Virus record (IMG/VR): IMGVR_UViG_3300009671_000009
Location: 160,467-224,466 of that record
DNA: 64,000 bases
From: a virus
Lineage: Duplodnaviria; Caudoviricetes
Direction: 5' to 3' (one strand)
Shown here: piece by piece, positions 12,255 to 37,443 of the stretch
Position numbering within the stretch: the first letter of the stretch is position 1
How the letters are laid out: every line of letters begins with the position of its first letter
Notes under the pieces: model-generated
Told to the model about the DNA's origin: nothing
The model's input: the letters and a program-made list of their open reading frames with translations, nothing else
Databases searched by the model: none
Position numbers and translations under genes: made by a program

Positions 12255-12611
12255 TTATATACCTCCTGATATCTTTGTCGTGTAAGTCCCAGCGATTCGT
12301 TCGACATAATTTTGCTTAGGAATGGTACACGCAACCACTGGAGCGTTTGAGCTTCCATTTAGAAAACATATTAACACGAAGTCTCCAATGCTAACAGTGC
12401 CATGGACATTCCCCATTTTACTAACATCAACTTCGTCTAGATCAACAACGTTTCCATTGGTAGGATCAACATACTGAATAGACACTCGTCTAGTGTCCTC
12501 ATTGTAATAGGTGATACTCCCCAGAGTTGGGAGTATTTGATTCGTCAATCTTCTTACCTCTGGGGATTCTTTAACTATCTCATATATTTTTTCGTGTAGT
12601 GGGTTAGCCAT
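12255..12611 (-). CDS. Putative baseplate spike OB-fold (gpV N-terminal-like) protein
   Basis: 'GSITYYNEDTRRVSIQY...SIGDFVLICFLNGSSNAPVV' resembles the gpV/gp5 OB domain. Confidence 0.6.
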   Translation of the reverse strand: MANPLHEKIYEIVKESPEVRRLTNQILPTLGSITYYNEDTRRVSIQYVDPTNGNVVDLDEVDVSKMGNVHGTVSIGDFVLICFLNGSSNAPVVACTIPKQNYVERIAGTYTTKISGGI

Positions 12612-15600
12612 TATCCTGCATTAAGCCTCCTGTCGATGCTTATGTCAAACATGGTATACAAGTCGAATGCAACTCCATGACAAGTGCCTTCTCCGTTTAC
12701 AATGACCAATTTTCTTTTTATGAAATCGTCTTTAATCATTTTTTCTCGGTTGGCCCTTGATTTTTCACTCTCACCAGGATTTGCTTTTATTTTGATTGCG
12801 CCATGTTTAAGATGAGCAATTGCATGCATCTTAGAATACTCTAGCTCCTGGGCTCCAAGAGATTGGCTGAATGTTTCAAATTTTCTTTTCATGGCATCCA
12901 TGTTGGCGATGCTTATACTTCCTGCCTGAACAGCAATGTCGAAACACAAAGCAAATCCTCTTTCGGTTTGCAATCCTAAGTATTTAAAGTAGCTTAAAGC
13001 TTTATTAAAATACTCTTCGGCTGCTTCCATTTGGTATCGCTGACAGTTAGGATCTGCACCTAGCCTATGAAAGTAAGTGTTCCATGGCTCACGGACATAT
13101 CTCTTGTAGTCCTTTCCTTTGGTGTAAGAAAGCTTGTCTCCCCAAGCGATAGCCTGAGAGGGTGTCATCCTAAGCATCCGCTGCAATTCTCCGTAGTCTT
13201 TTCCAAAGATTGACTGAACTGTTGATGAATGACTAGCAACCATCCTCTTGAGCAGTGCTTGCAAAGTTCCAGATTTTAAGTTGAATTGTAAAGTTCCAAA
13301 ACTTAGCCCTGCTCCATCAAAGTTACCAGAGACAACAGCAAATGAACCAGGAGGAGCAATACTCGTTTCAAACGTGCCTGTCATCATTAAGATTTTTTTC
13401 TTAAACTCATCGTCATAGTTGACTGTATTTGCACCAAAGAGTGCATCGCCAACTTCAACGCTGCTGCTTCCGAACAGTATCCTAGGACTGAGGTCTGGGT
13501 CTTCAGTATTAAACATTGTTTGAACCCACCCTGGCAAGGTTTGAATTATCTTATCCCACCAGCTGATCTTACTCTTGCCACCAACTGAACAGACAGTTAT
13601 TCCCTTGTGACCAGTTATCCCTGCAGAGAATTCTTGACCTTTAACTTGCAGTAGGCTCATAACAACACACTGAGCCTCGCTTAGTTTACGCTCTACCATG
13701 TTAGAAATAATCTTAGATGCTAATATCAGCGAAGCCGTGACAGCAAGCATAGCCCAACCAGGCACGGCAGCAGCTTTAACAAAGTTGCCTGCTTGAGTTA
13801 AAGCGTTTTGGGTTTGGCCTAAACCTGCACTGGCCTGCCACAACCCTTTGGTAACTACTCCTGTTCCGTATCTGTCCATTAACCATGTAGCACTTTGGGC
13901 TCCCCTGCCCATCATCTGTCCTAGCCTTAACAACATTGCTCCTCTAAGCGACCCTGCTCCTTGGCAAGTCAATCCCCAACTGAGTAATGTTCCCGATGCT
14001 ACTGAAGCTGCCCATACGAGCCGATCAGAAAATTCTGATTCCATTACTCCTGCAGCACAATCTGGGGAAACACTAGAGATGAAGCCTGTATCTAATGAAA
14101 ATTGATGAACAACTTGCTTTACAAATGCGGCACCGAACATCTCGTTATAAGCATCCCCGATATACATTCCGTCGTGGGGTTTGACGCTAGGATCACCCAT
14201 AATGACAAGATCCCCTTGATACATGTCTTTCATATAATCTCTGACAGTGCTCATGGCAAGGAACTGCGCTGTTTTCAAAGTGCCTAATTGCATTTGACAC
14301 CATTCATAAATTCCAGAAATAAACGATAAGAACGCAAAAGGCTTCCTTGCATATAGTTCGGAAACAATTGATGTGGTTCTTTGGATATGTGGATAAATAT
14401 CCTTATCAGCATTCGCTTTTACTGTTTCTTCAACAATAGAATGGTCTAGATTAAATATCTTGTCTCGAGCTACAGTTGCAATAACGTTATGATACATTCC
14501 TTGAGATGTAGCCTTCACTCTATTATCTAGTATATGTCCGAAAGAGGTATACAGATGCCATTGCCGAAACGGTTTTTTCTTAGCCCGCACGTAGAATCCT
14601 AGTTTTCTTTTTGTACCATCTTGATAAGAATGAGCTTCGGCGTATCCTTCCTTTTTAGTGGAAGATATGTCGTACCCATATGTTAGCGGCCACCACGGCT
14701 TTCCATAAAAGAGTGTTGATCTAAATTCAAACGGGTGAACTGCAGCTGTGTAATTTGGAACGTACATCGATAGTAGCTGTGCGACATCCCAGGTGGTCTT
14801 GCCTTCCATCATCAGATGGATATTAGGCTCGTCATTTGCATCCAGCCCCAGCTCGCCGTTTTCGCGAATGCCTGTTCCGTTTCCAGGATAGATGTTTTGT
14901 CCGAGTTCGCCCGCATCTTCATATAGGCCCATTAAAAAGTTCGGAGTTCCAAAGTGGGTTATTCCGTGACTGTCATCTAGCATCCAGTTTGTTTTGATCG
15001 CAGACCAAAAACGGCTGAAGCCTTGCTTGTCTCCTCTGATGAGCAGTCTAGCGAGCATGTTGCTAGGCTCTTCGCCTTGCTTGAGATTACCAGCAACCCA
15101 CCCGTTTCGGTAGTTTAGAACACTACATAACTCTAAAGCGTCGCTCTGCGCAATAACATTCAATATCTCTCCACAGCTGACTTCAGTAACTGTGCCGTTA
15201 AACATTATCGGCAACTCAGTTAAGTTGTTGCCATAACCCATTCTGACATGCAATCTTGCTCCAGGCAACAGACCCATATGCTCTTGAATAGCTGCGTGTC
15301 GTTGTTTCATTTCTTCATCGATAGAAAGCTGAAAGAATCGGTTTAGGTTGAACTCTACTTTTCCTATCTTGAATTTTCTATCTACAAATCTTTGATAGGT
15401 ATTGGCTACCGACATAAAAACAGTATCGGCAGCAATCTTTCTGCTCTTAACAACATCGATGCTGCTTATTGCGTTGAGCCCATAGAAGTTGTCCCAGAGT
15501 TTGTACCAACCTATTCTTACACCTTCATCTACAAGAAAAACATGACAAGTCGGAAAAGCCCTAGCCATAGTTCCTGTTTTGTCGTATGTCTTAGCGTCGT

Positions 15601-18217
15601 GCCATTCACTGCTCCACTCTGGTTCCGCTGCTCTCCCTTCGGGGCCATATCCTATCGGTCTAGGCTTACCATCGTCTGGAATATATTCGACATCATATAA
15701 TTCTGTCAGCATATTTCTTTTTACTGCTTCATCATATGGCAAAACTTTGTATCCCATCTCAGCTGCTATTCTATAGCCTTCTTGCTTGGCTCGTTCTTCT
15801 ATGGCAGTTTTGGAATATTTTTCGTTATATTCTTGGACGCTTAATTTACGAGCGTCTCTGAATTGACCAGCTTCAGCAGCGTTTTGGATGCTACCAAGAT
15901 GTTTTTCGATAACCTTTTCGGGGTGTTTTGATAGCTCAATAGCCTCCTGGACATAGAACTCTACACTCTTCATGTAGTTATCGTGTTGTTCTTTGGCACT
16001 TTCCGAAATAAGACTTTTCGACCTTGAGTTTATCCTATCCGAAGTTTTATCACCGATCTTGAAGTCGTATTCGTAAACTCTGGAAGTGGAAGTATCTGTC
16101 TCGTAGATAGTCATCTCTGGTTGGCGGGCAATAACTTCTTTAGTCAAATGTCTCATATCAAAATGGGGCCTAAAATAAAAATCGGGATCAACATATACTC
16201 CTGCATTTTCTGGACGTGGATAACCTTCTTTGCGACCGATGCTCTTTAGAAACTTATCGACCTCGTCATAAGTTGGCAAATCTAAGTCTGGATAGAGATT
16301 GATATTTTTGAATAGCGATTCAAGACGTGCCCACTCTATTGTTTCATTTACAGTGTTTGGCTTAATCCCTTTAGGAAAGATAACATATCCAGGCTTAAAT
16401 GTTTTGGAATTAAAGATAGAAGGCGAAGTATTAATTATCGGATTCTCTCCATCATGAGAGATAATTTCGCCGTATTCTCTCTTCTTCTGTGTTATATCAA
16501 AATCCATAAAGGTCATCTCTACATAGTACCTACCAGGGAAGTTAGGGACTGTAGAACAGCTCAGCGTATCAATGAACACGTAGTTAATACCGAACAGCTG
16601 TAGAAGATCGTTCTTCAATCTAACATAATTAGCTACCATGTCATATTTATATTCGCGCGCCACTCTTTGACAGTACTCATATAGATCTTGTAATCCCTTA
16701 AGTGCCTCATCACCAAACACTTCCATTGAAATCTTGCCGTAAACATCTTGGGTGCCCAAAAATTGATACGCTGGAGCCTCATATCCAAGCAAAGGTAATC
16801 TAGCAAAAGTGTTCTGATACGACACAGCTACATCTGTAACTATGATACTAGAGTAGTTGATATCATGAATTTTAAGGTATCGGCTGGTATCGAGGTTACC
16901 CTCTTCTTCGGTTTTCTTTTGCTCTACAAAGGCCTGTTCTATTGATAGAGTATTCTTAAGATGCTGATAGAACTCTTCCTTTTTAGTGCTCCATTTGCCT
17001 TCGGAATATCTAAAAGTAAGCCAACCTTCTCCTAGAAACGGAAAGACCAGAGGCGGTTTCTCGTCGCATTTGAGCTTGTTAAGATTACTAAAGTGCTGAA
17101 CTTTGATTGCAATCCAGCCATATCTGCTTAATGTTGCGCCACCATAGCCAGCCTCTGCACGAGTATAATCTATTTTCCAGTAGTCAGAATTTCTCGTACA
17201 ACGCTCTCCGCGGGTAGCTTTGTCAAATTCTTCGAAAGCCTTTTCGAAAGTTCTAACATCAGCTTCGGCACGTTCAAATCTGTTTCTAACTGCGTCACCG
17301 ACCGTCATCCCACTCTTTGCGGCAAGTTGCCTTTCCGCTTTTCGTTCATGTAAAAACGTCTCATCCATTGTAAAGAACGCTATTCCACTATCAGAACGAG
17401 TCATCGGTTTGAGTTTCTGACCAACGGTGTTATCCATAAGCCCTCTCTTGTAATACCACCTGTAGAGGTCTCCATCTATGGTATCTACAAAAGAAGGTTC
17501 TTGAGGCATAAAGGCCATATACTCAAACGCAAATAGAGTTATTGTCGCCTGTAACGATCTTGGGAATCCTTCTACTGTTTGCACAGTTAAATCATGCAAG
17601 CACACTGCATCTATTTTATGAACATAATTTAAGTAGTGGTTTAAGACTGGAACGAAAGGAGTTCTCATAAACTGAGAAATTAAAGACATAAGACTGTTGT
17701 CGTTACCAGATGAAGGCCCGTTAATAGAATATAAATCAGGAAAAAACAAGGTTAAAGAAATTCTAGTATCGGTATGTCCACTCTGCGATTTAATACTACC
17801 CTTTGATCTTATGGTTGGAACTCTTTTGGTTGTACTTATCTTGTCCACTTTAATCGAAGTAGGAGGAACATAAAATACGCTTGAACCCAGCTGTAACTTA
17901 TGATAGTAATCCTCTTGTTTGAGGAGAGAGGATATTTGATCCTGTCTCTCCTCCACATACAAGATTTTGGTAATAGAGTTATCCTTTAGACTAGGGAAGT
18001 AAAGAGTTACTTTATCGCCGCTGGTAATAGTCCTATTGGTGCCTTTGTAACAAAGCACACCTCGTCCGTTGTCAACATCAAAGACGCTCGAGAACTTATC
18101 CCGTGTAACAGTAACATTTTTTGTCCCTTGACCTTTATCAGCTATTGTAGCAAAGGCTACATGGTCTGGGCCAACAAAACTTATCTTAGCATATACAATT
18201 ACTTCTTTTTGTGCCAT
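12611..18217 (-). CDS. Baseplate hub / tail-associated protein with C-terminal lysozyme-superfamily peptidoglycan hydrolase (1868 aa)
   Basis: Hub-like motifs 'GARLHVRMGYG...MFNGTVTEV' and 'GDLVIMGDPSVKPHD...VKQVVHQFS..GFIS'. The C-terminal domain (~12611-13410) 'FETS...VSGNFDGAGLSFGTLQFN...ALCFDIAVQAG' is lysozyme/chitosanase-like. Confidence 0.7.
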   Translation of the reverse strand: MAQKEVIVYAKISFVGPDHVAFATIADKGQGTKNVTVTRDKFSSVFDVDNGRGVLCYKGTNRTITSGDKVTLYFPSLKDNSITKILYVEERQDQISSLLKQEDYYHKLQLGSSVFYVPPTSIKVDKISTTKRVPTIRSKGSIKSQSGHTDTRISLTLFFPDLYSINGPSSGNDNSLMSLISQFMRTPFVPVLNHYLNYVHKIDAVCLHDLTVQTVEGFPRSLQATITLFAFEYMAFMPQEPSFVDTIDGDLYRWYYKRGLMDNTVGQKLKPMTRSDSGIAFFTMDETFLHERKAERQLAAKSGMTVGDAVRNRFERAEADVRTFEKAFEEFDKATRGERCTRNSDYWKIDYTRAEAGYGGATLSRYGWIAIKVQHFSNLNKLKCDEKPPLVFPFLGEGWLTFRYSEGKWSTKKEEFYQHLKNTLSIEQAFVEQKKTEEEGNLDTSRYLKIHDINYSSIIVTDVAVSYQNTFARLPLLGYEAPAYQFLGTQDVYGKISMEVFGDEALKGLQDLYEYCQRVAREYKYDMVANYVRLKNDLLQLFGINYVFIDTLSCSTVPNFPGRYYVEMTFMDFDITQKKREYGEIISHDGENPIINTSPSIFNSKTFKPGYVIFPKGIKPNTVNETIEWARLESLFKNINLYPDLDLPTYDEVDKFLKSIGRKEGYPRPENAGVYVDPDFYFRPHFDMRHLTKEVIARQPEMTIYETDTSTSRVYEYDFKIGDKTSDRINSRSKSLISESAKEQHDNYMKSVEFYVQEAIELSKHPEKVIEKHLGSIQNAAEAGQFRDARKLSVQEYNEKYSKTAIEERAKQEGYRIAAEMGYKVLPYDEAVKRNMLTELYDVEYIPDDGKPRPIGYGPEGRAAEPEWSSEWHDAKTYDKTGTMARAFPTCHVFLVDEGVRIGWYKLWDNFYGLNAISSIDVVKSRKIAADTVFMSVANTYQRFVDRKFKIGKVEFNLNRFFQLSIDEEMKQRHAAIQEHMGLLPGARLHVRMGYGNNLTELPIMFNGTVTEVSCGEILNVIAQSDALELCSVLNYRNGWVAGNLKQGEEPSNMLARLLIRGDKQGFSRFWSAIKTNWMLDDSHGITHFGTPNFLMGLYEDAGELGQNIYPGNGTGIRENGELGLDANDEPNIHLMMEGKTTWDVAQLLSMYVPNYTAAVHPFEFRSTLFYGKPWWPLTYGYDISSTKKEGYAEAHSYQDGTKRKLGFYVRAKKKPFRQWHLYTSFGHILDNRVKATSQGMYHNVIATVARDKIFNLDHSIVEETVKANADKDIYPHIQRTTSIVSELYARKPFAFLSFISGIYEWCQMQLGTLKTAQFLAMSTVRDYMKDMYQGDLVIMGDPSVKPHDGMYIGDAYNEMFGAAFVKQVVHQFSLDTGFISSVSPDCAAGVMESEFSDRLVWAASVASGTLLSWGLTCQGAGSLRGAMLLRLGQMMGRGAQSATWLMDRYGTGVVTKGLWQASAGLGQTQNALTQAGNFVKAAAVPGWAMLAVTASLILASKIISNMVERKLSEAQCVVMSLLQVKGQEFSAGITGHKGITVCSVGGKSKISWWDKIIQTLPGWVQTMFNTEDPDLSPRILFGSSSVEVGDALFGANTVNYDDEFKKKILMMTGTFETSIAPPGSFAVVSGNFDGAGLSFGTLQFNLKSGTLQALLKRMVASHSSTVQSIFGKDYGELQRMLRMTPSQAIAWGDKLSYTKGKDYKRYVREPWNTYFHRLGADPNCQRYQMEAAEEYFNKALSYFKYLGLQTERGFALCFDIAVQAGSISIANMDAMKRKFETFSQSLGAQELEYSKMHAIAHLKHGAIKIKANPGESEKSRANREKMIKDDFIKRKLVIVNGEGTCHGVAFDLYTMFDISIDRRLNAG

Positions 18218-18228
18218 CTTGATTCTCC

Positions 18229-21200
18229 TTAATAGCTGTTTGGATCTTGGTTAACTCTCCCATAATTTAGAGCTTGACCTAAAAGATTTTGGGCAAAATT
18301 ATGATCAATAGTGCTGGTATCGTCTTTTTGGAATATGTTTACCGTACCTTCTTTGACTTGTTTCTGAACAGCATCAGATAAAGTACTCACATCGATATTC
18401 TTGCGGTTTTTAGCCTTGGCTGTAATTATTTGTCCATTGACCTGGGCTTCTACTCCGCTGTTCATTTCGACTCTGGCAACAGGAGTACCGTATCCCACTT
18501 CATTCGGAAGCATTTCGGGTTTTGGTTCTTTTCTGGCTGCGGTATTGGCAACAATAGCTCCAGCTCCAATGGCAGCACCTATCTTAGCCCACTTGGGGAT
18601 TTTCTTCCACAGACTTGCTTCCTGAACAACGTTCGCTGCAGTTTCTGCCATAGTGTCTTGTACAGCATCAGCTACAACAGTGGCTGCGCCTCCTGCTCTG
18701 GTCATTGTAGCAGCAATATCTTCTAAGTTATTCATATGCATATGTTTTAGCTTATCGTAGAACATCTCTTTGGCTATTGCGTATTGTCCACCTTGTGAAG
18801 TAGCTTTGGCAAAAGATTCGACCACATCAGTAGGTACAAAGCTTTTCATGTATGCTTCACTGTTAGGATCGATAGCCAGGTACTGAGAAAACATATTGGC
18901 AAGATCGCCGCCGCGCTTGCGGGAATATGCTGTATCACTAAAAAACATCTTGGAAGCTGCGCCACCAAAGTATTCTGGTGATACACGATCTACGGTATCT
19001 CGTACTTGTTCAATGTTCTGCAACATTTGATCTGCCATAGTAGTTTTAATTCTTGACATGGCAGTGTCGTTAATTAAATCGCCCTCGGCGACACCTAGCG
19101 ATGAAAGTACTTCTCCAGCTCCACTCCAGCTCAATGCTACTTCGTCACTAATGGCCGAAGCATAGGCTTCACCCCAGTCACGCACTAGCCCCTTACCACG
19201 CTTAAGAGATCCTTTAAGAGCATCTAATGCTTCGAACGAAAGAGGGTTTCCACCACGCTTACCCTTGAGGGTAACTTGTTCTGTTGTGGTTTCGGTAAAA
19301 GCATTAAGTAGTTCTATACGACGCATTCTTTCGGCTGGGTCATCAATACCTTCAAAAACAGCCATTCCTACGTCTCCATATCTTTGGGCAAGATTGTACA
19401 TTGGGCCTGCAGCTGTCTTTGAGAGATGAGCATTCATTACTCTTTCAACATAAGAATGGCCGCTGAAAAGATTAGGATCTTGCAAACTATTACCGAGGTA
19501 CTTTTCCCACGAGGTTCCAGCCTGAATACTCTGTTCGTTCAGGTATTTATATCTCAGATGATTGGCCAACCGATTGTTGTATTCAGTTTGTTTACGATGA
19601 ACACTCGCCAGGTTCATTTGCATTCTAGCAAATGATTCGTTGTCCATATCTAGCATTCTCTTAGAGAACGGAGATAGCATTGCAACTTGGTCACCATCGA
19701 AGTCTGCGTTGGCAAGTGCTGCATCTACTGCTGACATTCTAGCGACCCTGCCTTGGAGTCCTTCTTTGACCCTGATATTCATGATAGCAAAGTTGCCAGC
19801 CCATTCATTTGGGTCACGCATCATAATACCATAAAAGCCTTTATCGCTTCTAAGAGCTCTCATGATATTCTCGTCTGCTCCCTCAAAGAGCTCTCTTGCA
19901 AAGTCTTCGCCGATTTCCATAGTTCCACTTAAGTTGGCAGCAACTTCGAGATTAGCTGAAATATTTTGTGCCTTAAGTCGAGCTGAGGTAGGCATCCTAG
20001 TTTTCATTGCTCTTTCCATTACAGCGCCACCAGAAGAACTGATATTATATCCAAGTTCATCGATGTATTGTTTAACATGAGTCTTCATGGCACCAATGGC
20101 TTCTTCTCTAGTTCTGAAAGCGCCATGGGCAGCATCTACAGTATTAAATGACTCAACCGCTTTGATATCTTCAAATATGTTCATAAGCGCTCTGTTTTGG
20201 TTCTCAAGAAAAATTCTACCTTGGGAATCTCTACCGATAGGAGCTCTAGCCACTGGTAATGTAGAAATTGCTCTTCTGGCACTTCCAAGATCTACAGCGA
20301 TTTCAGTTGGAAGTTTTAGGGCAAACATTCCTTTTTCGGTGTCTAAAATAGTATCTTCGAGTTGTCCTCGCGAAAACCATGAACGACCAAGTATCTCGCC
20401 AAACCCTTTGTCGAAATCTCCAGCGTCAAGCTGAGCAAGTTCACCCATTCTGCTAGGGTCAACCAAGTATCCAATTGCCCTTGACATCTCACTAGCAGCT
20501 TGGCGATGCTTACCAAGACCAGGCATATCGCGAGCCTCATCTGTCATGTAATTAAGAATGGCATCCATGTCAGCTCCAATGATTGCGCCCTTGGCTTTCA
20601 ATGAGCGAATCTCTCTTGGGCCAATTCTGAGACCTGCTCCTACCGTTCTGTCCGAGCCCAGATAGTTAGAGAATCTAAAAGTTTCGTTGATATTCATACG
20701 GCGAAGCTCAACTAGTTCCTTATCTACTTCTCTTCCTCCTGGAAGAACAACAGACAAGTCATTGCCAAACTTTGCCATGAGACTATTCATTTTAGACTCA
20801 AAGGCTTCTGGCTGTAAACTTAGATTTTTATCGGCCAACATTTGTGTGGCATCTGGTACAACAAAACTCAGTCCTGTTCTGCCTGGCAATTGTACTAGTT
20901 CTGTTGCTCCAAACATACTCGACATTTCTTTACGAATTTCTTCAAGCTTCAACGGATTATTTTGGTATTGTTCTGCCAACAAAGCAAGCCTACCTTTTAG
21001 AGTAGCAGATAAGTCTTGATATTTTTTTGGATTTCCAAGATGTATAAGATGAGTATCTTGTCCAAAGATCTCATGCATTGCTTTGCTCACCGCATCAGAT
21101 TTATCTGGAGCACCAAGAAAGCTCATTGTGCTTTTCCTGGTATCATGCATTACTTTTACAGACTCTTCAGCTTCGTATATAGCCTCTGCATTCAAGCGAA

Positions 21201-24200
21201 GCATTCTTCTGCCTTCGGTATTTGTATACACCTCTGCACTTCTAAGGACTCCGCGGTCATCTTCAAACATTGTTTTAAATGTTTCTCGACCTTTGCGGTT
21301 CAAGATATCCTCTTCAAATAATGCTTGGTTTCTAGCTATCTCAAGAGGTGTTTTAGCTCCAGACTCAATCCACGAACTAACATCTTCCGTAAGCCTGGCA
21401 ACTCCTTTATCTAGATCGTCTAAGGCGACCTCAAACGACTTAGGTTGTCTTCCTTGCAACAATCCTCTTAGTTCTGGTGAACCAATAGAGCCTTGCTTCC
21501 ACGTACCAGGAGTAATAAAGTCATCACTCGTTAAACCGTATTTCGCAAACACTTTCTGTGCTTCGTCTGATCTGATAACATCCATGTACTCTTGTGAAGA
21601 TAACTGAATTGCTCCAATTGAAACACCTTTGGCAAGAGCAAATTCTGGAGCTACTGCTTTAGAAAGTTCGGTATAAGACTTCAACTCAGTTCGTGAAAGT
21701 ATGAACGGATTTAATCCTATACCTCTCCTGTGTGCAATATTTTGTAATTTATCTTCTAACTCTTTGACTGTGTATGGATAGTAATTTAACCACTGACGGA
21801 GATTTGGACGAGCAGCACTTTGCATGGCCCCAAATGGAGAAAAGTCTCTTTCTGTCATCATACCATAGAAGCCTCTGGATAGCTTTTCTGCCTTAACACC
21901 TTCTCCTGTCAATCTATTAATTATTTTTGCTTTGACTGGATCGTCTCCATATTTCTCTGTAGCCCATTCTTTGAACTCCATGAGAAATCTTCTTTGCTCA
22001 TGTAATTTAAGATCGTCTAGGCCTTTTGCTTGCCTGTTAAGTCTATCAGCTGCAAATTCAGGAACTAAAGCTCTTATATCAACTTCATGACGTCGTAAGA
22101 TATCGGCATCGTTACCTCTAACATTAAGACGAAATGCCTCTTCAAACGAATCTCTAGTTGATGCTCTCGAAGCTCCAGAGGCTTTTTCAAATATACCTCG
22201 GACTGCTCTACTAACTCTTCTTTGAGCTGCTTCCACATCAGGGGCACCAGATAAAGGAGCAAGATACTTGGCTACTGTACCTGCACGTCTGCCAAGAGTT
22301 TTAGTCAATTCATCGTATAGGTCAGTAAGTACGAACCCTTTACCTAAACGAAATTGATTGACTTTTGATTCTCCTCCTAATATTATATTCCCTGCGTCGG
22401 TCAGCATTGGGAATTCCATTACAACTGCATTTCGAGGAATTGCACCTGTCCTGGCTGCATTTAGTACACTTTCTAATGTACTTCTGTCACCGCCATGAAC
22501 ATAAAGATTTATTCTGTTGCCAGCTCTCGCTACATGTACACCAAGATTGCGATCTTCGTAAGACTTGATAATGCTTTCTAGAGCCTTACTCATTTTTCCC
22601 CTGTTAGTTTGTGATGTGGTTAATCCGTCAAACAAAGACGACACATAGTCGGGATATTCAAAAGCTCTTGATTGTCTCTTCGCAGCCGCAATAGAATCGG
22701 TGGCAATCTCCGCTGCTCTGGCCATGTCAATTTGCACCATTCTATTTTTAACGCTTTCTACTGGAACATTGATATTTTCTTTCAAGACTAAATCTGAATG
22801 TTGTAGGATATTTTGCAGCTTCTGGGCACGATAAAAAAATGGTGATTCCATGCCTGCAATTTGGTCAACGTGCGATTGAGTAAGATATCCTCTTTCCCGT
22901 AGATCAAACAGGGCTTCATTAAATAAAGTGTTTCTGGATACATCTGCCTCTAAAGATCCAGCCTTGACGCGACTGTCAAGATTACTTTTTAAGGCACCAG
23001 CAAATCCCTCTGATCTTATTGATATTCTATTGCCAAGAATTTCAACTGTTGGATCCCAGGCGCGGTTAACGACCTCAGTATCGACTGGGAATTCTTCTTT
23101 GAGTCTGCTATAGAAATTTTTAAACGCTAAGGTTTTTTCGTGCGGAGACAAATCAGACTGATCAGCAGCTTCAATAAATCTAGTTAAGGCTCCAGACTCT
23201 GCTGATATCCTACCATACATTGTACCAAGGTCTCGTTTTTCAGTAAATGAAAGTCTATTGTACTCATCAAGATCTCCACCAAAAGCCTTAACCATCCGTC
23301 TCATTGATGAGTAGCCTTTGCTGTCTACGCTACCCCACCTATGGATAGCTTGTCTGGCAAGATCTTCTAGGCCCTCTTGTCCAAGCACGGCACTCTCTGG
23401 ATTGATATATTGCAGAGCTCCTCCTTGGATCTTTTTTCTTACCTCATCAATACTTGATCCAGTTAAAAATGCAGATCTCCCTAAGTCTGTCGAATAGAAC
23501 TTAGCAATGAAGACATCATTATCTTGAAACATTCCTTCATAACGATAAACCGCTCTTCTGTTAAATACCCAGTTGTATACATTGCGTCCATCATCGTCTA
23601 TTGAAAAGTCTCTGCCTGTCCCTCTTACGCCTTGCATCGACATAAACATCTGACCAGGTTCCATAGGAGCCGTAGAATAGCGAAGCATGTTACGAACACC
23701 TGGTTTGATAGAAGGAGTAGAAACTACACCTTTGTCAAACATTCTAGCAATTGGGTCAAAAGCAAAGCCGAAGATTTGTTCTTGGGAAGCTATGTCAAAG
23801 GCACCCATGTGGGCTGAACCTTTAATACCCATAAGCCCCCTCATGGCATCCATGGTCAAAAGCCCTTCTTGGTTTGTGCGAAGAAATGTTCTTAGTTGAC
23901 CGCTTACTTCTCTTCCTATTTGTCTTCTAACTTTTCTGTTGGCTTGAGAGATGTCGGTAAAACCTCTCTCTTGCAAAGCCTTGTTAAGCAACATTCTGCG
24001 ATATAATATTGTCGGATCGTTATGCGTAATTCTGAATAGGTTGAGAACATCAATAGGATGATTTTGCTGACCATTGGCAATCCCTATCAATTCAGCCCAT
24101 TTCCCTTTGCCTCCTCCAGCATCTACAATCTTCTGCATTGCTGGGAAGTCGAATGCATCTGAGTTAAATCCAACCAGAGTAAATTGGCTTCCTAATAATC

Positions 24201-24924
24201 TGTGGGACTCAAAGAAATCTCTAACCTTGGTATGAACCTGATGTTCTGGAACACCGTGTCTAGTTATATTTGTAAGACCTCGCTCCATAAGATCATATTC
24301 CGCGTTGGTAAAATTAAGATTTCCTGTCGCTTTTTTGAGATTAAAATCGCTATGATATTTTACCATATTGGTAGCTGGATCAATTGTTCCTTCTTCGGCA
24401 TATCTCATAAAGCTGGCAATGGCAAAGCGCTCCTCTTTAGTGAGAGCAGCTCCAGATCTTGCTTTTGTTATTAACGATTTAAATCTTTCAGTCTTGATTT
24501 CATTTGGTGCCACAGCAATATTTAGCATGCCTTCTTGTCTTCCGAAGTTTGCGTATTTTGCCATGGCTATTTCAGTTGCATGGAAGAGATCGCTATCTAG
24601 TTTCAAACCTGTTGTTTCAAGGTCGAACATAAGAAAAGGATCCCTTCCAATTCTCTGTCTAAAATTCTGAAATGATTCAATCGTCTGCTGCGCATCAAAA
24701 TGACCCATACCTGGAGCACTTATATAACTCCAAGGAGCAGCATGTGGAATTGGATTAAGGGCTTTATTTGTCCAACTCTTCTGGGTATTGTCAATGCCAA
24801 ATCGCTCAGATCGTCCTGCGCCAGCATTAACATTTTTAAAACCTAATGATGAATAGAAATGCGAAGTATTATTAGAAACAACTTTGATTCCTGCATTTCT
24901 AAGCATCTCATCGTATTTGCCCAT
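18229..24924 (-). CDS. Single-chain two-barrel (beta+beta'-like) RNA polymerase with N-terminal DEDDh exonuclease; putative virion RNA polymerase (2231 aa)
   Basis: NADFDGD at 19690-19710, preceded by 'MRDP' and '[10 protein letters not shown]' (beta'-like). Beta-like motifs '[19 protein letters not shown]' (20584-20640) and '[11 protein letters not shown]' (K1257/K1264). DEDDh motifs 'FDLETTG', 'GFNSDAFD' and 'HMGAFD'. Confidence 0.85.
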   Translation of the reverse strand: [2231 protein letters not shown]

Positions 24925-24936
24925 TTTGTTCTCTCC

Positions 24937-27900
24937 TTAGAGTAAAGTGTCCATATTGTTGTTAACGAACTCTATTATCTCTTGCCTGCGATCCTTGTCA
25001 ATGTGTACATCCATTTGAACCCCAGCATTAGGTGAAGACTCTACTATTACGTCTACATCTTCGAGCCCTATGCCTTGCATGATCTCTATTAGATTTCGAC
25101 GCAGGTCTTCGCCCTTAAATGTTGATTTATTGATTGGCATCCCTGGTGCTTCATTGGTTTCTGACTTCTCAACATCCTGTCTCCAGAAACCGAACTCAGA
25201 AAGGTCAAGTCCTTCATTGCGCACTACGCGAACTTTAACATCGGCTAGATCTTTTGTTCCAGACCAGCCTTCCCATCCTGCCTGCGGAAGATAATGGTTT
25301 TTGAAATACTCTTCAAGATCAGGTCTTGCGTCTGGTCGCATTCCCCAGGCTGCCTGCAAGAATCTCCGCTCATTCTGAGGAACAAGTTCGAGGATTTCTT
25401 TGCGCTCTTCTGGCTTAGCTTTGATAAACTCAGCAAAGTATTCGCGTTCTTTTGAGGGCATGGCGCTCATTATTTTGCGAATGCCGCCTTCAGCATCAGC
25501 ACCATAGAGAGTCGATTCAGCAGCATTTTTATATTCGATAGCGATCCTTGCCCAGTTTGGAATATCTAGAAGTTCTTTATTTTTTGAGATAATATCTAGC
25601 TGTGCATTGATTTCTCTTAATCGAGGATCTTCTTTAAAATATTCGCTGAACTTAGTTTTGGTTTGATAATAAGCTCTTCTTTTGGCTTCCTTCTCATCAA
25701 ACTGTCCTTTAATTCTCTCTATCTCTTTGTCTTGAGCTCGATCAATTGATTTTCGCAGCCATTTTGGAGTGCGCTCTCTGATGCCACTCCATTTGTCTTC
25801 TGCTTCTTTAACAGCCGACCACTTGTCTTTGATGATATTGTCGATTTCCCGATCCCTTTTAGCTCTCATACGCTCAATGTCGCGTTTGTATGTCTCTGTC
25901 GCCTTGCGCTTTTTTGGTAGCTGCTCTAATTTTAGTTGTAATTTTTCGTTTTCAAGATCTCTTCTTAATTGCTTGGTTATGTTGCGCTTCTTCCTAAGTT
26001 CGTCGTAGAGTTTTTCGACGTTAAAGCCTTCTTCTTCGGCTCTGCGTTTTGCGTATTCATACATTCCTTGATACTTGATATAATCAAGAATATCAAAATA
26101 CTCATTTATCTCACGCTCTTTACGACGTCTCTCAGGAATCCATCTTTCGTCGCTAAACACATCATGAAGACTTCTTGCACCAGATAGAGCGGCAAATAAC
26201 AACGCTCCATACTTAGCGCCTTTAATTCTTCTTGGCATTGAAGTTCCATAAACCAAGCCGCCCAGAATACCTCCACTGATAGCAGCACTAAACATGTCTT
26301 TAGAAGCAATACCAGATATAGCAGGTTCGAGCTGGTCTCTAATAGACCATGACTGGAATGACTTACCGAAAACTTCCCTTCTTTTGTATTCTTCTAAGGG
26401 AGAAGCAACATGTAGGAATTTGGTATGGAAAGGAGTGTCTGCATGAGCAAAGCTCTCCCATAACGAACCCAACATAATTTCTGGGCCACTAAACCTGGCG
26501 TGAACTCCTGCTGAAGACCAATCTGTCTCTTTCTCAGTAGCTAGACCTGCACGCATCATTGCGTAGTTAAGATTTTTGCCTCGAGCAAATACGACCGCTG
26601 CCATACTTCCCATCGAATCATTAGTGCGTCGCTCGCTTTCGTTGACATCGACGCCGATAGTCAATGCAGCCCCAGGATAGATAAACTTGTTGATGAATTC
26701 TCTGGTTTGGTCTGCACCTTGGGCACTAGAGACAGTGATACCTGCCATCCTGATTGGAGTTGTCGGATGCTCGCGCGTTAAGAAGGTTTGATTATCTAAG
26801 ACCTCGGTAACATGAACCTTCTCTCTGACAATATCAGTATACTTAAAGCGATATGGAAAGAACCTGTGCTTCTTCTTCATGTCAGCTACTCTATCTTTGG
26901 TATCGACTATGAATTTTTTAATCTGTTCTTTCTCTTGTCGTTCAGAACCAGTAATTCCTGTAAGATCTGAATATTCTTGGCTTACATATTTAGCATAGTA
27001 TCTATATTCATCAGAATATGGAGCAACATCAGCCAGAATAGCAAATCGATGTAGTGGATCATAAAGTTCAAACTTGGATACTTTGCCTTCATCTATTAAT
27101 GCTTTGATTGTTGCTCTTATGCCTTCTAGTTTGTCAACCAGTCTTTCATATCTTCTGTTGTCAAAATCAAAGCCTATGTATTTTGTCTGTGACAAATCAT
27201 CTCGATTGACATATTGTATTCCGCCTTTTTTGATGCCCAAAGCGTGTTGATAAATTGTTATCTGATCAAGATGCTCTTCAAAAGCTCCTTCTTTCATCAT
27301 GATGTCCCAGCGTCTTTGATTTACTGTTTTAACATCTACTACAGTTGGAGTCCCGTGTAAGTTGAGAATAGCATCGTAGTGCCCTGTAGATCGAGCTTTT
27401 TCATCATACACAAGTTCTTCCATTGACATCAGAATACCTTTTTCTTGCCACATCCGCTGATATGCTTTGTGGATTTTTGTACCTTCCGCCATGGCATTTT
27501 CTGCACTATCAAAAATTGGGGCGTCTTCAATGTTTAAAAGCTTATTAATAATCGTCTCTTCGTCTTGACCAGCTAACGAAGCACGGATAACCATATTTTC
27601 TGGATGATAATTCCAGAGAGCTTCATATCCGCCACCAGGAAGTCTTGCTTCGCCGCGGGGAATCTTAACATAAGGATCGCCTCGCTTGAAGTCTAAGAAA
27701 TAGTTCTCTCCAGGCATCCAGCTTGGCATAGTATTGGGGATCAGATTTATATCTAAATCTTGTTGGTATCTTCGGTCTCTTGGTAAGAACCGACGTCCAA
27801 TTTCCGAAAACTCCCCACCAAAACCGCCAAGGTTTTGATCCCAGAACGCCCTAGAGTAACTAGTCATCCTAGAAGAATCTTGGAGAACTTTCATCGAATC

Positions 27901-30900
27901 AATTGGTTGTCCAGTAAGACCTTGAGCCATAAAGCCGTAAATACCGCCCATTTCAGTCAGGCCGTAGTATGTTTTGGCACCAACATATTGCAAGCTATTT
28001 GTCTGAATAGCTCCTTCAAGAGATGGAGGTTGTTGTGAAGTATCCCACCGCGACGGAACAAAAATTCTTTCTCTTAAGGATTTGGGCTTACCACTGTAGG
28101 CTCTGGCAAATTCCCCCTCATTGATTGACGCCACAGCAGCTCTCCCAGAGCCAGTAGAACCAGCAACGCGGTATCCTAACCCTTTTTCGCTACCTCTGGC
28201 AACTTCTTGGAAGTTTCTTGCTGGGCCAATGTCTCCAACAATAGAGATGTCGCCAGAAGGTGTGATGTAGGCAAAGTTACGATCTGCTTTATCTTTTTCT
28301 CTCTGATTAAGAGTAGAAATATGTTCTTGGGAAACTTCCGCGGCATATCGTCGCATTTCCTCTTCATGCATCCGTTTTGGAGGTTTGAGCATGTGCCCAA
28401 CAGCAGCTGACAACGTAGCTCCAGCAACAGGTATATCTGAAAACTCTGAAATAGGCCCTGTTGTAGGGTAGGGCCTGTCGTAGTAATGTTTACGCTCCCA
28501 ATGATACGGATCTGTGATAAAATGTCTAATAGGAGCCAGCGGATATCTTGGAGTAGGAAACCATGCATTTCTATAATACTCTTCCCTAGAACCGTACATA
28601 ACGTCCGTCATCTTATAGTCAGCGTATGCCATTCTTCGTTCACTTGGAAGATAGTATTCTATCTTTCCTCCGACGTAAGGGGTATTATGAAGAATTACTG
28701 ACAAAGAACAAAAACTATGGTTTTCGTCAACCTCATAGTCATAAACTATACCACGATAGCCACTATCAACAACCTCGCGAATCTTAATATAAACATATTC
28801 ATCATCAATGTATATATATTTGTGAGTTGAGTTGCTTTTTTGCGGAATAATCTTTTGGTCTATTTTATAAGATTCTAGTTGTAATGCTAAATCTACTGCT
28901 CCTTTGCCATCAACAATGAGTCTCCAACCTACGAATTCTTTGCCGTCTAGCAATGTATTGTGTTTTATAACGCTATTGGGAATTCCAAAAGAGAACAATA
29001 CGTTTCTTACAAATAACAGATGCTCTAAAGTTGCAGAAGTTATATTAAGTTGGCAGGAATTTCCCACGACAACACAGTGTCCATCCCCGTCGAACATTCC
29101 TGCAATGAATCCCAACATGAAGTCCTTGCACTTGGTCATAAGTATACGAGAAGGACTCTTTTTTCCAGCGCAGTACAGGACTTTTTCAATCCATTTAACT
29201 AATTTTCTAGAACATGCAATAATTTTTATTCCATTGTCTGAAGTTTGTTCTAATCTAGTTTTGCAACCAAAATATTTATTGACAAAATATGCAACAAAGT
29301 TTGCCAAGTGTGATTCTTCAGAATTCAGATAAATCTCTATAGAATATCCTTTACCCTTTACTTTTTTCTTAATAGAACCTTCTGCAAGATACAGTCCTAA
29401 GAAATAGCCTACTTCTTTATTAGAAGAAATATCATATATGGGCTCTGTACATGTACCAACCTTTGGCCTTGGGAATGCTAAATAGTCTCCTGCTTCCAAG
29501 TCCCTTGCCATTGTCCATTTTGGAGTCCAAACAAAACGTTCATTACAAAACCTGGGATATGGACACTTATCGCACATCTTATTCTGCCTATCGGGTCTGC
29601 AATCAACAACGGTGTTTGATGGACACTTTTTCTTTTTAACTGCAAGATACGGATGGTTATCGGTCGTAGTCGTTGCAATAGGAAATGTGTGAAGTTGAAC
29701 TTCTGGAGCCCATTCGTCGTCACGCATGTTTCTTACAATTACATCTTTGACAGGTTTTAACTCTCCAGTGTGAGTAAGAAGAAGATCTCCGATTGCAACT
29801 TGTTCAGCGCGCTTTGATTCGGCAAAATTAACCAGAATAAGGGTATCTGGTGTGACACAGTTTCCAAGGAACCACCATCTACCTTTGCGCATTGGGCGCA
29901 CGCCTGCGTCTTCTTCACGGACTTCTTCTAAGCTCTTAGTGGGATCGAGGAAATGGAACCCTGGTAACTCCCATATTAGTTCGGAACCAGGAGTTAGCCT
30001 CGCGGAACGTTTAAAGAAATCGGTGATACCAGTGGCGTCACGCACAGAAGCAAGTCCTTCTCTGGCACCTTCTTTGACATCTGCCAGCCATTGCTGGCCA
30101 GTCTTGCCTGTGATATTTCCGAATTCCCAGGATAGATAACCAAGAGCGCCGACACCCAATAATGCTGGTAAGTATCGTTTAGTTATCATATTCCCAAAAA
30201 GTGAAGCTGCAGAGCTTGTGCTTTCTGGGCCAAGTCCGACACCTAAGTAGGATAGAGCTTCTTGAATACGTCCAAACGGCATGTGATAAGCAAACATAGA
30301 AGTTCTAGTAAACTTATCCATGTTATATCTGCCCGCAGTAAATTGTCTGGCCCAGTCGAGCATTTTGTCCTGAGCAGCAGAACGTTCTTTCTCGGCACCG
30401 TTAAGAGCAGCGATGAGATCTTTACCAGTTACTTTTACTGAATCTCTAACCATAAAGAACTCAGTACCTCTGGCGATTTCTTTTTCTGCCGTCAACGGCA
30501 TTGGGCCGTAAGAATACCACGGAGCACGATTGCTCATATAGTCTGTAGCGCCAGCGCTAATGATACTGATGCTATTATCTAATTCATTTTTTATATCATC
30601 AACTGATGCATGACTCATGAACACATCAAGGGCCATGCCTTTTGCGTTGATGTCTCCTGTTTGTATGAGATTAGACGCAATATCACGGAAATCTCTGCCA
30701 GAGTTTTCGCGTACCTGCTCAATTAACTCTTGTTGAACTAAGCGCTTGATACTCTCTTGCTTTGTAATCATATCTCGCTCGGCAAAAAATTCACCGAATT
30801 GCCCAATATCTGGCCACTTATTGGAATAGGTCTTCATATTCTTCATAAAAGAATAAGGGTCTCTACTATAAGCGTTCCAGTTTGTAAGGAACTCCTCGCC

Positions 30901-32490: not shown

Positions 32491-33018
32491 TTAAGGCCTC
32501 CTTGGGAACGCTGGAGGTGGGGGGAGGGGCGGAACTTGAGGTGTTTGTTGGGGATCTTGAAATCCGATTTGTAAACCTCTCAAGTTTAGAGACCACTCAG
32601 CCTGAGCATATCTTTCGAATAGCTTCTTCCTTGTCCAGGTTTCTATCTCTTCTTGTCGATATTGAGGAAATGCAGTCATTATGACACATTCCATTTGTCT
32701 GTCTAAATCAAGTTCAAGTTCTTGTTTTGCTTGTTCTATTAGGGTTAAAGAAGTACTAGCATTACAGAAACCAGATGTGTTGAGAATTGAAAGACAAAGC
32801 ATTGCTGGAAATCCTGCTTTGCAGTTACCCAAGTCAAGGCCTTCTGGCTGTATTAAACATAAGTAAACTACATTTTCTTCAAAATCAAACCCGTCTGGAC
32901 TAGATTGAAGCAAGACTCTGAATTCTTTTCGGGTGAGTGGCCTGAAGTAACAATCTGTATTATCAACGTTTATACTATATACTTCGTCATACGTAGCAAA
33001 TGCTTCTTCTAAGGTCAC
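32491..33018 (-). CDS. Tail assembly chaperone (paralog 2, with C-terminal extension)
   Basis: Lies between tube genes and the tape-measure-like gene; 'YFRPLTRKEF' chaperone-like motif; similar to 33037-33627. Confidence 0.65.
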   Translation of the reverse strand: MTLEEAFATYDEVYSINVDNTDCYFRPLTRKEFRVLLQSSPDGFDFEENVVYLCLIQPEGLDLGNCKAGFPAMLCLSILNTSGFCNASTSLTLIEQAKQELELDLDRQMECVIMTAFPQYRQEEIETWTRKKLFERYAQAEWSLNLRGLQIGFQDPQQTPQVPPLPPPPAFPRRP

Positions 33019-33036
33019 TTAGTTCACCACGCCATC

Positions 33037-33627
33037 TTATAGGCGCTCTGGTTCTGATGTTGGAACGAATCCTGATTTGTCCATAATTTGCTCTGCTAGT
33101 AAAGTAGGAGTACCTGCTTTTCCAGAAATCATGGCTGTAATACTATATCCGATTGGCCATAGTACGCAACGTTGACAGATATTTTCTTCTCGGAACATTG
33201 TGTCGCCATTCTTAACTTGGATCCGTAATACCTCTTTATACTCGTTCCGTCTCAGACAACGCCAGATGAATGTCTCGTCGCCGAACGATGATGAATAGAC
33301 TTCACCGAATTGTTGCTTCCACATTTCAACTAATCCTTGTGGTGGGCCGCCAGGGAAAATTTCTTCCTCGTCTTCTGGAGACATAGGGGCATAGCCAACG
33401 TCAGATCTCTGGATAGGCATTTGTGTTTGTGACATCCCCATAGGCATCATAGGCACTTGAGGAATTTGCGGGATTAAATTTGGATCCCCAGGATCTCCCC
33501 CAGGAATACCTACAAAATCGTTAGAATCTACAGGCACCATCACTTGTCCTCCGATATTTAGAGCTCCAGGAATATTCATTCCTTCTTGCTCTTTCTTAAC
33601 TTGGGCTGCTGATTTTCTTGCTGCCAT
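33037..33627 (-). CDS. Tail assembly chaperone (paralog 1)
   Basis: 'WKQQFGEVY...FIWRCLRRNEY' resembles myovirus tail chaperones; synteny. Confidence 0.65.
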   Translation of the reverse strand: MAARKSAAQVKKEQEGMNIPGALNIGGQVMVPVDSNDFVGIPGGDPGDPNLIPQIPQVPMMPMGMSQTQMPIQRSDVGYAPMSPEDEEEIFPGGPPQGLVEMWKQQFGEVYSSSFGDETFIWRCLRRNEYKEVLRIQVKNGDTMFREENICQRCVLWPIGYSITAMISGKAGTPTLLAEQIMDKSGFVPTSEPERL

Positions 33628-33645: not shown

Positions 33646-34368
33646 TTAACTTCTAGGGACTAAGTCCCTTGCTATAAATGTGTAATCTTCGTATACAGGA
33701 ACACCATCTGGGGTGATGATGTTTTGCAAAGAAGATAACTGCACTCCTGTGATTGTATAACTTGTGGTTGGCGGAACATCAAACTTGCGGTTGTAATCGG
33801 GGTGTCCAGCTACTGAGCTTATTTTTGAACCGTACATAATAACAACTTCAAAACCTCTAGCTGGCTGAACAAAGAAGGGCATGCTACCATTGGCTCCCCC
33901 GCTTGTTTTCTTATCCCATGCTTGATTCTGATAAGCTTTCGCTATCTTGAGCATATCTTCTAGACTCTTATCTTGCATTTGAGAATCTATATCTTCTTTT
34001 GCTAACGTTTCTTCTAAATAGTTATTTTGAAGATACTCATTATCAGCTGTGATACGATCAGCGGCATATTTACTCCAGGAGTCTTTAGTACCACTCATTA
34101 TATTTTTATCTCTTATTATTTTATGCAAATAAAATGATTCCCTAAAATTTATTCTAAAAGTTCCTGAAACAAGTCTTGATCCCCTAGCTGCTGCATCGTA
34201 AACGAAACTGTTGTAGCCAAAAACTGGCTGCACTTGTTCAATTACGGCAAAATTAATTGATACAATCTCATCAATCCAGGCATCTCCGAAATAAATAGAG
34301 ACATCGCAACCAGAAAAATATTCCTCTGGATAAACTTGGTACTCAAGTGCGCCTGCCAAAACTATCAC
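33646..34368 (-). CDS. Tail tube-like paralog (baseplate-proximal / tube initiator)
   Basis: 'FSGCDVSIYF...EQVQPVFGY...ARGSRLVSGTF...YTFIARDL' aligns by eye with the two upstream tube ORFs. Confidence 0.65.
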   Translation of the reverse strand: MIVLAGALEYQVYPEEYFSGCDVSIYFGDAWIDEIVSINFAVIEQVQPVFGYNSFVYDAAARGSRLVSGTFRINFRESFYLHKIIRDKNIMSGTKDSWSKYAADRITADNEYLQNNYLEETLAKEDIDSQMQDKSLEDMLKIAKAYQNQAWDKKTSGGANGSMPFFVQPARGFEVVIMYGSKISSVAGHPDYNRKFDVPPTTSYTITGVQLSSLQNIITPDGVPVYEDYTFIARDLVPRS

Positions 34369-35036: not shown

Positions 35037-35057
35037 TACGAGACCTCCTTAACATAG

Positions 35058-35093
35058 AAAAAAAGGGGAGAGGAAATCTTGTCCTCTCCCCTT
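35058..35093 (-). terminator. Rho-independent terminator after the major tail tube gene
   Basis: 12-bp perfect stem AAGGGGAGAGGA / TCCTCTCCCCTT with a 7-nt loop, followed by a T7 tract on the minus strand. Confidence 0.9.
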
Positions 35094-35107
35094 GGTATTA
35101 CTTGGGA

Positions 35108-37440: not shown

Positions 37441-37443
37441 TTA

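Follow-up and report, generated by a model that had tools for sequence, protein, structure and literature searches.

A predicted single-chain beta/beta'-type RNA polymerase core inside a giant tail-operon protein of a jumbo phage

That a giant virion or tape-measure protein can conceal a two-barrel RNA polymerase (RNAP) is already established for crAss-like phages and for Thermus phage P23-45. Examples come from a podovirus lineage (crAss gp66) and from a siphovirus, where P23-45 gp96 forms the precedent for a virion RNAP fused to a tape measure (PMC10770324). According to Chaban et al., gp96 is flat, lacks a clamp and falls in the clade of phage and plasmid single-subunit enzymes (PMC10770324). 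Contractile-tailed jumbo phages would be added to this list by P0001, the product of a gene at positions 18229-24924 (-) of a 64,000-nucleotide stretch of viral DNA. This stretch, hereafter called the window and used for all coordinates unless the record is named, forms the end of a virus record of 224,466 bp that is rated complete (IMG/VR record IMGVR_UViG_3300009671_000009). The phage belongs to the jumbo myoviruses related to Bacillus phage 0305phi8-36, which itself carries a separate RNAP (orf99) that resembles YonO and RNA-dependent RNA polymerases (PMC2147016; PMC7824862). From the analysis described below, P0001 is probably a virion-carried enzyme that starts phage transcription.

The gene is a single uninterrupted frame of 2231 aa in which an exonuclease, a middle region, a beta-like module, a beta'-like module, a hydrophobic helix and a C-terminal domain follow each other. 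Judged from sequence and structural model, 18229-24924 encodes a fused single-chain beta/beta'-type RNAP core. An earlier note, made from the letters of the DNA only, had already proposed such a chain within the tail operon, with the beta part preceding the beta' part, and this is borne out by profile, fold and conservation. All six cellular-RNAP-like motifs that it had listed are present in the one open reading frame and in the order given. Motif 1 is found at residues 1028-1040 (window about 21805-21843), motif 2 corresponds to the K1257/K1264 block and motif 3 covers residues 1429-1447. In the beta' half, motif 4 lies at residues 1640-1649, motif 5 at 1670-1680 and motif 6 (MMRDP...NADFDGDQ) at 1701-1746.

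A word-indexed search returned three relatives only, with 99, 72 and 49% identity. When a profile of residues 950-2050 was used in hmmsearch, 31 cluster representatives were found, nearly all of them 2100-2600 aa long. Of these, 27 entered the conservation alignment, at 15-73% identity to the query. Eight positions are invariant in it (G1431, R1703, P1705, D1741, D1743, D1745, G1840 and K1889), and nine are nearly so (G1032, N1041, Q1044, K1257, K1264, T1266, P1539, S1647 and N1844). The conserved positions coincide with the motifs of the earlier note, and also with a bridge-helix-like K..G..(Y/S)N and a trigger-loop-like EQ..IS.KH. As far as the aligned sequences go, catalytic residues that stay constant at 15-20% identity are a mark of purifying selection.

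The catalytic loop D1741-F-D1743-G-D1745 is part of NADFDGDQ and lies at 19690-19704 (-). Its three Asp are invariant in the 27 relatives; the Asn of NADFDGD varies from member to member. DFDGD occurs only once in the whole 224-kb genome, namely in P0001. The two basic residues of the beta-type barrel, K1257 and K1264, are found together with T1266 at 21133-21156 (-). The bridge-helix-like segment (19369-19440 (-)), which may be compared with beta' ALKTANSGYLTRRL, contains the invariant G1840 and the nearly invariant N1844 and forms the long helix 874-908 of the model described below. The trigger-loop-like segment, with the family consensus given above and the invariant K1889, lies at 19240-19308 (-). 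Both segments fall on long helices of the model, and beta' chains align over model residues 536-1096, a chain-level correspondence and not a residue-level superposition. Upstream of the beta-like module, a block at residues 834-862 (22339-22425 (-)) resembles the conserved N-terminal beta block EIPLMTDNGTFVINGTERV, and its P839 is invariant in the family. The pairing of this block with beta 99-146 by hhalign is not significant (E 0.053).

Run against the PDB, the profile of the 27-sequence family matches bacterial beta' chains along a stretch of 134 positions that begins with RxPxSGR and ends with NADFDGDQ (E 3e-7). The same profile matches gp55 of the phiKZ non-virion RNAP (E 1.5e-6). The comparison of the family with E. 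coli RpoC by hhalign yields a probability of 75% and an E value of 2.4e-5. With the single sequence of E. coli RpoB no significant hhalign result was obtained, and the beta assignment therefore rests on the fold and on the conserved residues.

For the fold, residues 950-2050 were modelled with AlphaFold2 (pLDDT 87.4, pTM 0.85). The top matches of this core model in a Foldseek search of the PDB are all RNAP chains of beta/beta' type, that is second-largest and largest subunits, with E values of 2e-6 and up. The earlier note had suggested a comparison with RpoB and RpoC, among others, and chains of the two types indeed lead the match list. An unbiased structural scan of the core model, covering 48,161 representative chains, gives the same division into halves. 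Beta-type chains, including the beta halves of AR9 and phiKZ, score Z 12-15.6 within model 1-519. This beta-like module (residues 950-1468, 20521-22077 (-)) holds motifs 1-3 and is placed by VIA-align on E. coli beta 537-1300 with a Z of about 15, over about 390 residues and at a root-mean-square deviation (rmsd) of about 4. The beta'-like module (residues about 1485-2045, 18790-20472 (-)) aligns to beta', RPB1 and RPA1 chains (Z 9.7-10.8, 380-445 aa, model 536-1096). Single-chain enzymes align across both halves: QDE-1 (Z 10.4, model 1-1093), RDR2 (Z 10.1, model 1-1098), P74-26 gp62 (Z 8.9, model 23-1092) and P23-45 gp96 (8h2n_A, Z 6.9 over 314 aa, model 59-970).

Had two double-psi beta-barrels around NADFDGD been missing, the proposal of the earlier note would have failed by its own account. 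Isolated double-psi beta-barrel domains match model 693-830, around the DFDGD loop, with Z 7-8, and the beta half aligns over the barrel-bearing part of beta. In addition, domains of the sandwich-barrel hybrid motif (SBHM) type (NqrA, RnfC, DUF2118 and the NusG insert) match model 209-301, with modest Z values of 5.6-5.9. They mark a flap-like insertion at residues 1158-1250 (21175-21453 (-)), which comes after the ED position and before the two lysines, the same arrangement that cellular beta has. It is this SBHM (flap) insertion that distinguishes cellular-type beta from YonO- and RdRP-type enzymes (PMC7824862). P0001 seems to lack the large N-terminal lobes of beta or to have something else in their place.

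Searches that start from the single sequence give little. A PHROGs scan assigned P0001 to no family, and tblastn of P0001 against 50,697 phage records returned nothing at 1e-5. The blank of tblastn reflects low sensitivity, because the hidden Markov model (HMM) of the 27 sequences later found full-length members in phages WH1 and KLEB27-3. With P0001 alone, phmmer against the PDB gave only matches to ribosomal L6 (E about 0.5), which were set aside as spurious. The mReC phages (PMC7481178) were considered as family members and rejected: they had been found by RpoB/RpoC markers and have phiKZ-like split enzymes.

One residue pair of the core deviates. The earlier note had cautioned that the segment expected to match the beta 'ED' motif reads differently, and rightly so: K1143-Q1144 (21493-21498 (-)) takes the position of the acidic pair E813-D814 of beta. 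The Glu position of this pair is occupied by Glu in 22 of the 27 relatives and by Asp in two; a Lys is confined to this phage and its closest relatives, among them the one with 72% identity. RNA-library contigs from four studies span most of the P0001 gene at >=99% identity, with some bins uncovered, and over the codons of K1143-Q1144 they show no differences. The pair is thus not an assembly error, as independent contigs that cover the codon agree, and it is a real departure from the cellular active centre. These contigs show neither transcription, strand nor level, and were not used as evidence of expression.

The RNAP core is flanked by other modules. At the N-terminus, residues about 86-414 (23683-24669 (-)) form a DEDDh (DnaQ/RNase T/ExoI-like) 3'-5' exonuclease. 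Its Exo I (DxE), Exo II (NxxxD) and Exo III (HxxxxD) residues, i.e. D101, E103, N254, D259, H372 and D377, are invariant in the 27 sequences. The exonuclease model reaches Z 13.5 to ExoI, 3'hExo and TREX1 and superposes on ExoI over 189 aa at an rmsd of 2.7. ExoI and RNase T are also returned by Foldseek with the N-terminal model, polymerase exonuclease domains are among its structural matches as well, and the family profile matches 9mrc_A (E 2.5e-6). A folded alpha/beta region without a fold assignment follows at residues about 415-790 (22555-23682 (-)); the fold-match lists of the N-terminal model are filled by the exonuclease. Behind the core, a Gly/Ala-rich hydrophobic helix at residues 2109-2131 (18532-18600 (-)) is a putative membrane anchor with a counterpart in 0305phi8-36 gp146. 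The last module is a C-terminal domain of about 90 residues (residues about 2140-2231, 18232-18507 (-)). It is homologous to the C-terminus of gp146, as found by hhalign (95.5%, E 1.5e-8) and by a match over HMM positions 2011-2216 (E 2.4e-13).

The setting of the gene is that of a structural operon. P0001 is the central member of three successive giants (2516, 2231 and 1868 aa), which are separated by gaps of 12 nt and 11 nt. The stop of the upstream giant abuts the Shine-Dalgarno sequence GGAGAG of P0001, whose ATG lies 12 nt past this stop and 6 nt past GGAGAG. The P0001 gene is translationally coupled inside the structural operon. The upstream giant (24937-32487 (-)) is a homologue of the 0305phi8-36 virion protein gp145 (E 1e-121) and contains an intein and a Cas4-like nuclease domain. 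The downstream giant (12611-18217 (-)) is homologous to the baseplate hub/lysin gp147 of 0305phi8-36 and its relatives. Two small genes (175 and 196 aa, 32491-33627 (-)) are found where 0305phi8-36 has its tail chaperonins gp143 and gp144, a correspondence of position only. The order of the three giants is retained in metagenomic relatives down to 17-19% identity. The tail operon of 0305phi8-36-related jumbo myoviruses contains a conserved cassette of three giants, of which P0001 is the middle one.

In 0305phi8-36 the middle gene codes for gp146, a protein of 2537 aa that is annotated as hypothetical tape measure protein and noted in record NC_009760 as a virion protein by mass spectrometry. 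The protein has the Exo I region, the hydrophobic helix and the C-terminal domain in common with the P0001 family, but no RNAP core was found in it. The exonuclease probably serves entry, acting on nucleic-acid 3' ends, and not RNA proofreading, because it is also present in this RNAP-less protein. Hardies et al. described gp146 as conserved with prophage homologues only in its last 60 residues (PMC2147016). The assumption of the earlier note that the polymerase gene sits between the tape measure and the hub has to be given up. P0001 itself is the homologue, by position and C-terminus, of the 0305phi8-36 gene assigned as tape measure, and the giant upstream of it is the gp145 homologue. Of what would speak for a tape measure, the position and the C-terminal homology to gp146 were seen; one giant, however, separates P0001 from the chaperone-like genes, and the core is globular and not tape-like.

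Full-length members with an intact DxDGD were found by a local HMM search in two Bacillus phages, vB_BauM_KLEB27-3 (gp034, E 6e-294) and vB_BceM_WH1 (gp095, E 1e-250). Each bears the annotation of a structural protein and nothing more. The earlier note knew of no myovirus with a fused RNAP of this kind. This must be qualified, as members were already deposited in GenBank, but it stands in so far as they are not annotated as RNAPs. Orf99 of 0305phi8-36 matches PF05183 (E 1e-20), whereas the same search of the P0001 genome gave none at E <= 10, and no match was found in the WH1 and KLEB27-3 genomes either. In a comparison of four genomes, the RNAP giant was seen without a YonO-like gene in this phage, WH1 and KLEB27-3, while 0305phi8-36 shows the reverse, with orf99 and an RNAP-less gp146. 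When the P0001 family was compared with orf99 by hhalign, only the catalytic loop was paired (E 0.047). Moorella phage MTATph1 (7820-15176) has the homologue in pieces: the exonuclease region is encoded by CDS0027 and the C-terminal domain by CDS0031, and a transposase gene lies in between. Neither an RNAP core nor a PF05183 gene was found in this phage.

Taken together, the best explanation, and one we hold to be reasonably probable, is that of a mosaic virion RNAP that would be packaged with the tail, ejected and used to transcribe the first genes. We infer packaging of P0001 from its coupling in the structural operon, the C-terminal homology to the virion protein gp146 and the structural label of its homologues. 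P0001 would be made late, together with the tail, and its C-terminal module would build it into the virion. Tail contraction would then expel the protein, and the hydrophobic helix would hold it at the membrane or entry channel. There, P0001 could transcribe the first phage genes off the incoming DNA, for which the host RNAP would not be needed. Afterwards, a phage sigma-70-type factor would steer the host RNAP to the later genes. A bolder proposal, which we put forward tentatively, sees the gene at the tape-measure position as a modular ejection machine. Its exonuclease, membrane helix and hub-binding tail would be constant, whereas the fused beta-beta' RNAP would be gained or lost and exchanged for a free YonO-like RNAP, and the anchored enzyme would couple genome entry to first transcription. 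If true, no such system would have been seen before in a myovirus, and no fused phage RNAP known so far would come closer to the cellular enzymes.

Several observations weigh against a packaged and active RNAP. For P0001 and every full-length homologue, packaging, ejection and activity are inferred from the analysis and not from experiment. A literature search found no paper on WH1 or KLEB27-3 from which the basis of their labels as structural protein could be learnt. The tape-measure role of gp146 was assigned mainly from its length by Hardies et al. (PMC2147016). A folded core of about 120 kDa is too large for the lumen of the tail tube, so that P0001 would travel unfolded or sit elsewhere in the virion; in the P23-45 study, too, the authors left open how the folded core passes the tail tube (PMC10770324). 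No distinct promoter motif for a virion RNAP was detected: no 13-mer occurs >=6 times, and the only words enriched upstream of genes are Shine-Dalgarno and TATAAT-like ones. The Pfam family RNA_pol_Rpb1_2 (PF00623) reaches 16 bits on P0001 when the whole protein is scanned and 20 bits when the genome is searched, with a cut-off of 25.3. There is no match of RNA_pol_Rpb2_6 (PF00562) to P0001, and a Pfam scan of four distant family members gave one Rpb1_2 match only, which was sub-threshold. Finally, the Lys in place of the ED Glu might weaken the binding of the second metal. It lowers the confidence in activity somewhat, though not wholly, since neither the Asp triad nor the other catalytic residues are altered.

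The exchange of the ED Glu for Lys in this phage and its 72% relative, the sub-threshold Pfam scores and the fact that 0305phi8-36 makes virions with an RNAP-less version could all be accommodated if P0001 were a structural tape-measure or ejection protein. The RNAP-like module would then be a dead relic, kept as a scaffold or DNA-binding module. We consider this improbable, since 27 sequences at 15-20% identity show little or no variation at the three Asp, the R-x-P, the two lysines, the Gly of the bridge helix and the Lys of the trigger loop, a pattern that fits catalysis and not a scaffold, and since the genome is without another RNAP. Alternatively, the RNAP could be active but not packaged, as a late-made non-virion enzyme for late or other genes in the infected cell. 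Many phages have non-virion two-barrel RNAPs (Supplementary Data 4, PMC10770324), and the presence of P0001 in the particle is itself deduced. Yet a late-gene polymerase is not expected deep in a late structural operon, 12 nt behind another structural gene, and the hydrophobic helix and C-terminal domain are common to a virion protein identified by mass spectrometry; such a role is accordingly thought unlikely. Little chance is also given to a two-barrel polymerase of other chemistry, whether primase-like, RNA-dependent (as QDE-1) or a DNA polymerase (as PolD) that proofreads through the fused DEDDh domain. It is true that DEDDh is the classic proofreader of DNA polymerases and that polymerase exonucleases are among the structural matches, that QDE-1 and RDR2 align across the entire core with Z about 10, and that the Asn of NADFDGD varies within the family. 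The exonuclease, however, also occurs in the polymerase-less gp146 and is hence not tied to the polymerase. The core is also nearer to beta/beta' than to the QDE-1/YonO type, with Z 15 per half, the flap insertion and an E value of 2.4e-5 to RpoC versus 0.047 to orf99. Moreover, R1703 of the R-x-P is invariant, and the equivalent Arg of cellular RNAP contacts the 2'-OH of the nucleoside triphosphate.

The remainder of the genome gives the context in which the proposed virion RNAP would act. PHROG matches include a terminase, a portal, a major capsid protein, two sheath-like genes, three tube-like paralogues and a baseplate wedge; the phage is therefore a contractile-tailed jumbo phage. Elsewhere in the 224-kb genome a DnaE-type polymerase, a ribonucleotide reductase and an SNF2 helicase are encoded, the latter two with inteins. 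No second RNAP-like gene was found in the 224 kb: PF00562 and PF05183 have no match, and the matches of PF00623 are only inside P0001. PF00940 has no match in the genome, but this blank is uninformative as 0 of 14 control genomes were matched either. A sigma-70 region-2 gene (PF04542, E 5e-16) is present outside the window at record positions 37911-38120 (+), in the replication arm and adjoining the SNF2 helicase. It is a candidate redirector of the host RNAP.

The 2516-aa giant upstream of P0001 is split by an intein with a LAGLIDADG homing endonuclease (28678-29520 (-); Pfam LAGLIDADG_3, E 5e-12; Intein_splicing below its curated cut-off), and two homologues of it likewise carry an intein. 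This phage has further inteins in its SNF2 helicase and its ribonucleotide reductase (record positions 39943-43182 and 66836-70411). Residues 1664-1796 of the giant (27100-27498 (-)) form a nuclease domain of the Cas4 or PD-(D/E)xK type (phrog_1706, E 1e-11), and this region is conserved with 0305phi8-36 gp145. With the Cas4-like domain and the neighbouring DEDDh domain, the giant-gene cassette would bring two nucleases into the cell. Further upstream, three tandem paralogues (240, 223 and 219 aa, 33646-35767 (-)) match phrog_9206, which is labelled major head protein despite the tube position of the genes. Two sheath-like genes (547 and 429 aa) are found at 35797-39353 (-).

The 'direct terminal repeat' of the record measures 123 bp only. 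It looks more like a circular or permuted assembly overlap than a true terminal redundancy; that of 0305phi8-36 is 6.5 kb. Data sets of 16 studies (2016-2025) on bioreactors, landfill, activated sludge and digesters contain near-identical DNA, and one of them may be the source sample. For window 17000-26500, contigs with >=99% identity were found in four metatranscriptome libraries (four bioreactor studies) and in DNA from landfill, activated sludge, digesters, compost and soil (2016-2025).

A search of the accessible literature found no paper on this family or on an RNAP in the tape-measure-position gene of a myovirus, and a 2026 review of jumbo phages mentions neither tape measures nor fused or two-barrel RNAPs. 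Since the halves of P0001 are still beta/beta'-like and come with a flap-like insertion and bridge-helix- and trigger-loop-like segments, the protein would serve as a compact model, in a single chain, of the cellular active centre. A further question that it raises is how about 120 kDa of polymerase core could pass through a tail. The virion prediction is directly testable because culturable members exist (WH1 and KLEB27-3). In BFVD, fold relatives of the core are found among uncharacterised giants (A0A172Q021, A0A172Q0S6, A0A075BUT7, A0A7J4 and A0A8S5SD80, E 5e-19 to 2e-4). Their sources are Acinetobacter phage vB_AbaM_ME3, two Microcystis phages (MaMV-DC and Ma-LMM01) and a contig from the gut, whose protein is labelled 'minor tail protein'. 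With the fold present in the giants of ME3, MaMV-DC and Ma-LMM01, enzymes of this sort may be widespread without having been annotated, and hidden single-chain RNAPs may be common in large myoviruses.

When P0001 is compared to the known systems, it shares with the YonO/QDE-1-type enzymes (PF05183) that both barrels are in one chain, and QDE-1 and RDR2 align over its core. It differs in that its genome has no PF05183 match and in the flap-type SBHM insertion, which is absent from those enzymes (PMC7824862). The multisubunit virion and non-virion RNAPs of phiKZ and AR9 (PMC7598289; PDB 7ogp, 7s00) are likewise jumbo-phage enzymes of the cellular beta/beta' type, and their subunits for the C-terminal half of beta are among the best structural matches of P0001 (Z 15.1-15.4). 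However, they consist of four or five polypeptides encoded outside the tail operon, whereas P0001 is a single chain fused to non-polymerase modules, from which the N-terminal beta lobes are apparently largely missing.

The crAss-like phi14:2 gp66 resembles P0001 as a giant of about 2200 aa among the giants of the structural block. It is also a single-chain two-barrel RNAP with a DFDxD loop that is thought to be ejected (10.1101/2020.03.07.982082). It comes from a podovirus, however, and its core has been described as highly divergent from the cellular subunits (PMC7481178). In the BFVD search with the P0001 core, crAss-like giants are weak matches (E 4e-5 to 9e-4, low template-modelling scores). 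In the Foldseek search of the PDB and the scan of representative chains, 6vr4 is not among the matches listed. Gp66 is not known to carry an exonuclease fusion. In P23-45 gp96, as in P0001, a two-barrel RNAP with DFDGD is located in a giant tail-operon protein that bears membrane segments (PMC10770324; PDB 8h2n/8h2m), and both are proposed to transcribe the early or pre-early genes during DNA entry. Gp96 is a siphovirus protein of 5002 aa with the RNAP at its N-terminus; in P0001, from a contractile-tailed jumbo phage, the RNAP lies between the exonuclease and the C-terminal module. Against the P0001 core gp96 reaches Z 6.9 over 314 aa, well under beta, beta' and QDE-1, and sequence similarity was not detected.

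The same slot, between the homologues of gp145 and gp147, is occupied by 0305phi8-36 gp146, which has a similar size (2537 aa), the DEDDh Exo I region, the hydrophobic helix and the C-terminal domain. It differs from P0001 in having no RNAP core, in a phage with the separate RNAP orf99. This contrast between a middle gene with the RNAP and one without it, accompanied by a free YonO-like RNAP, offers a natural experiment on swapped strategies of transcription initiation.

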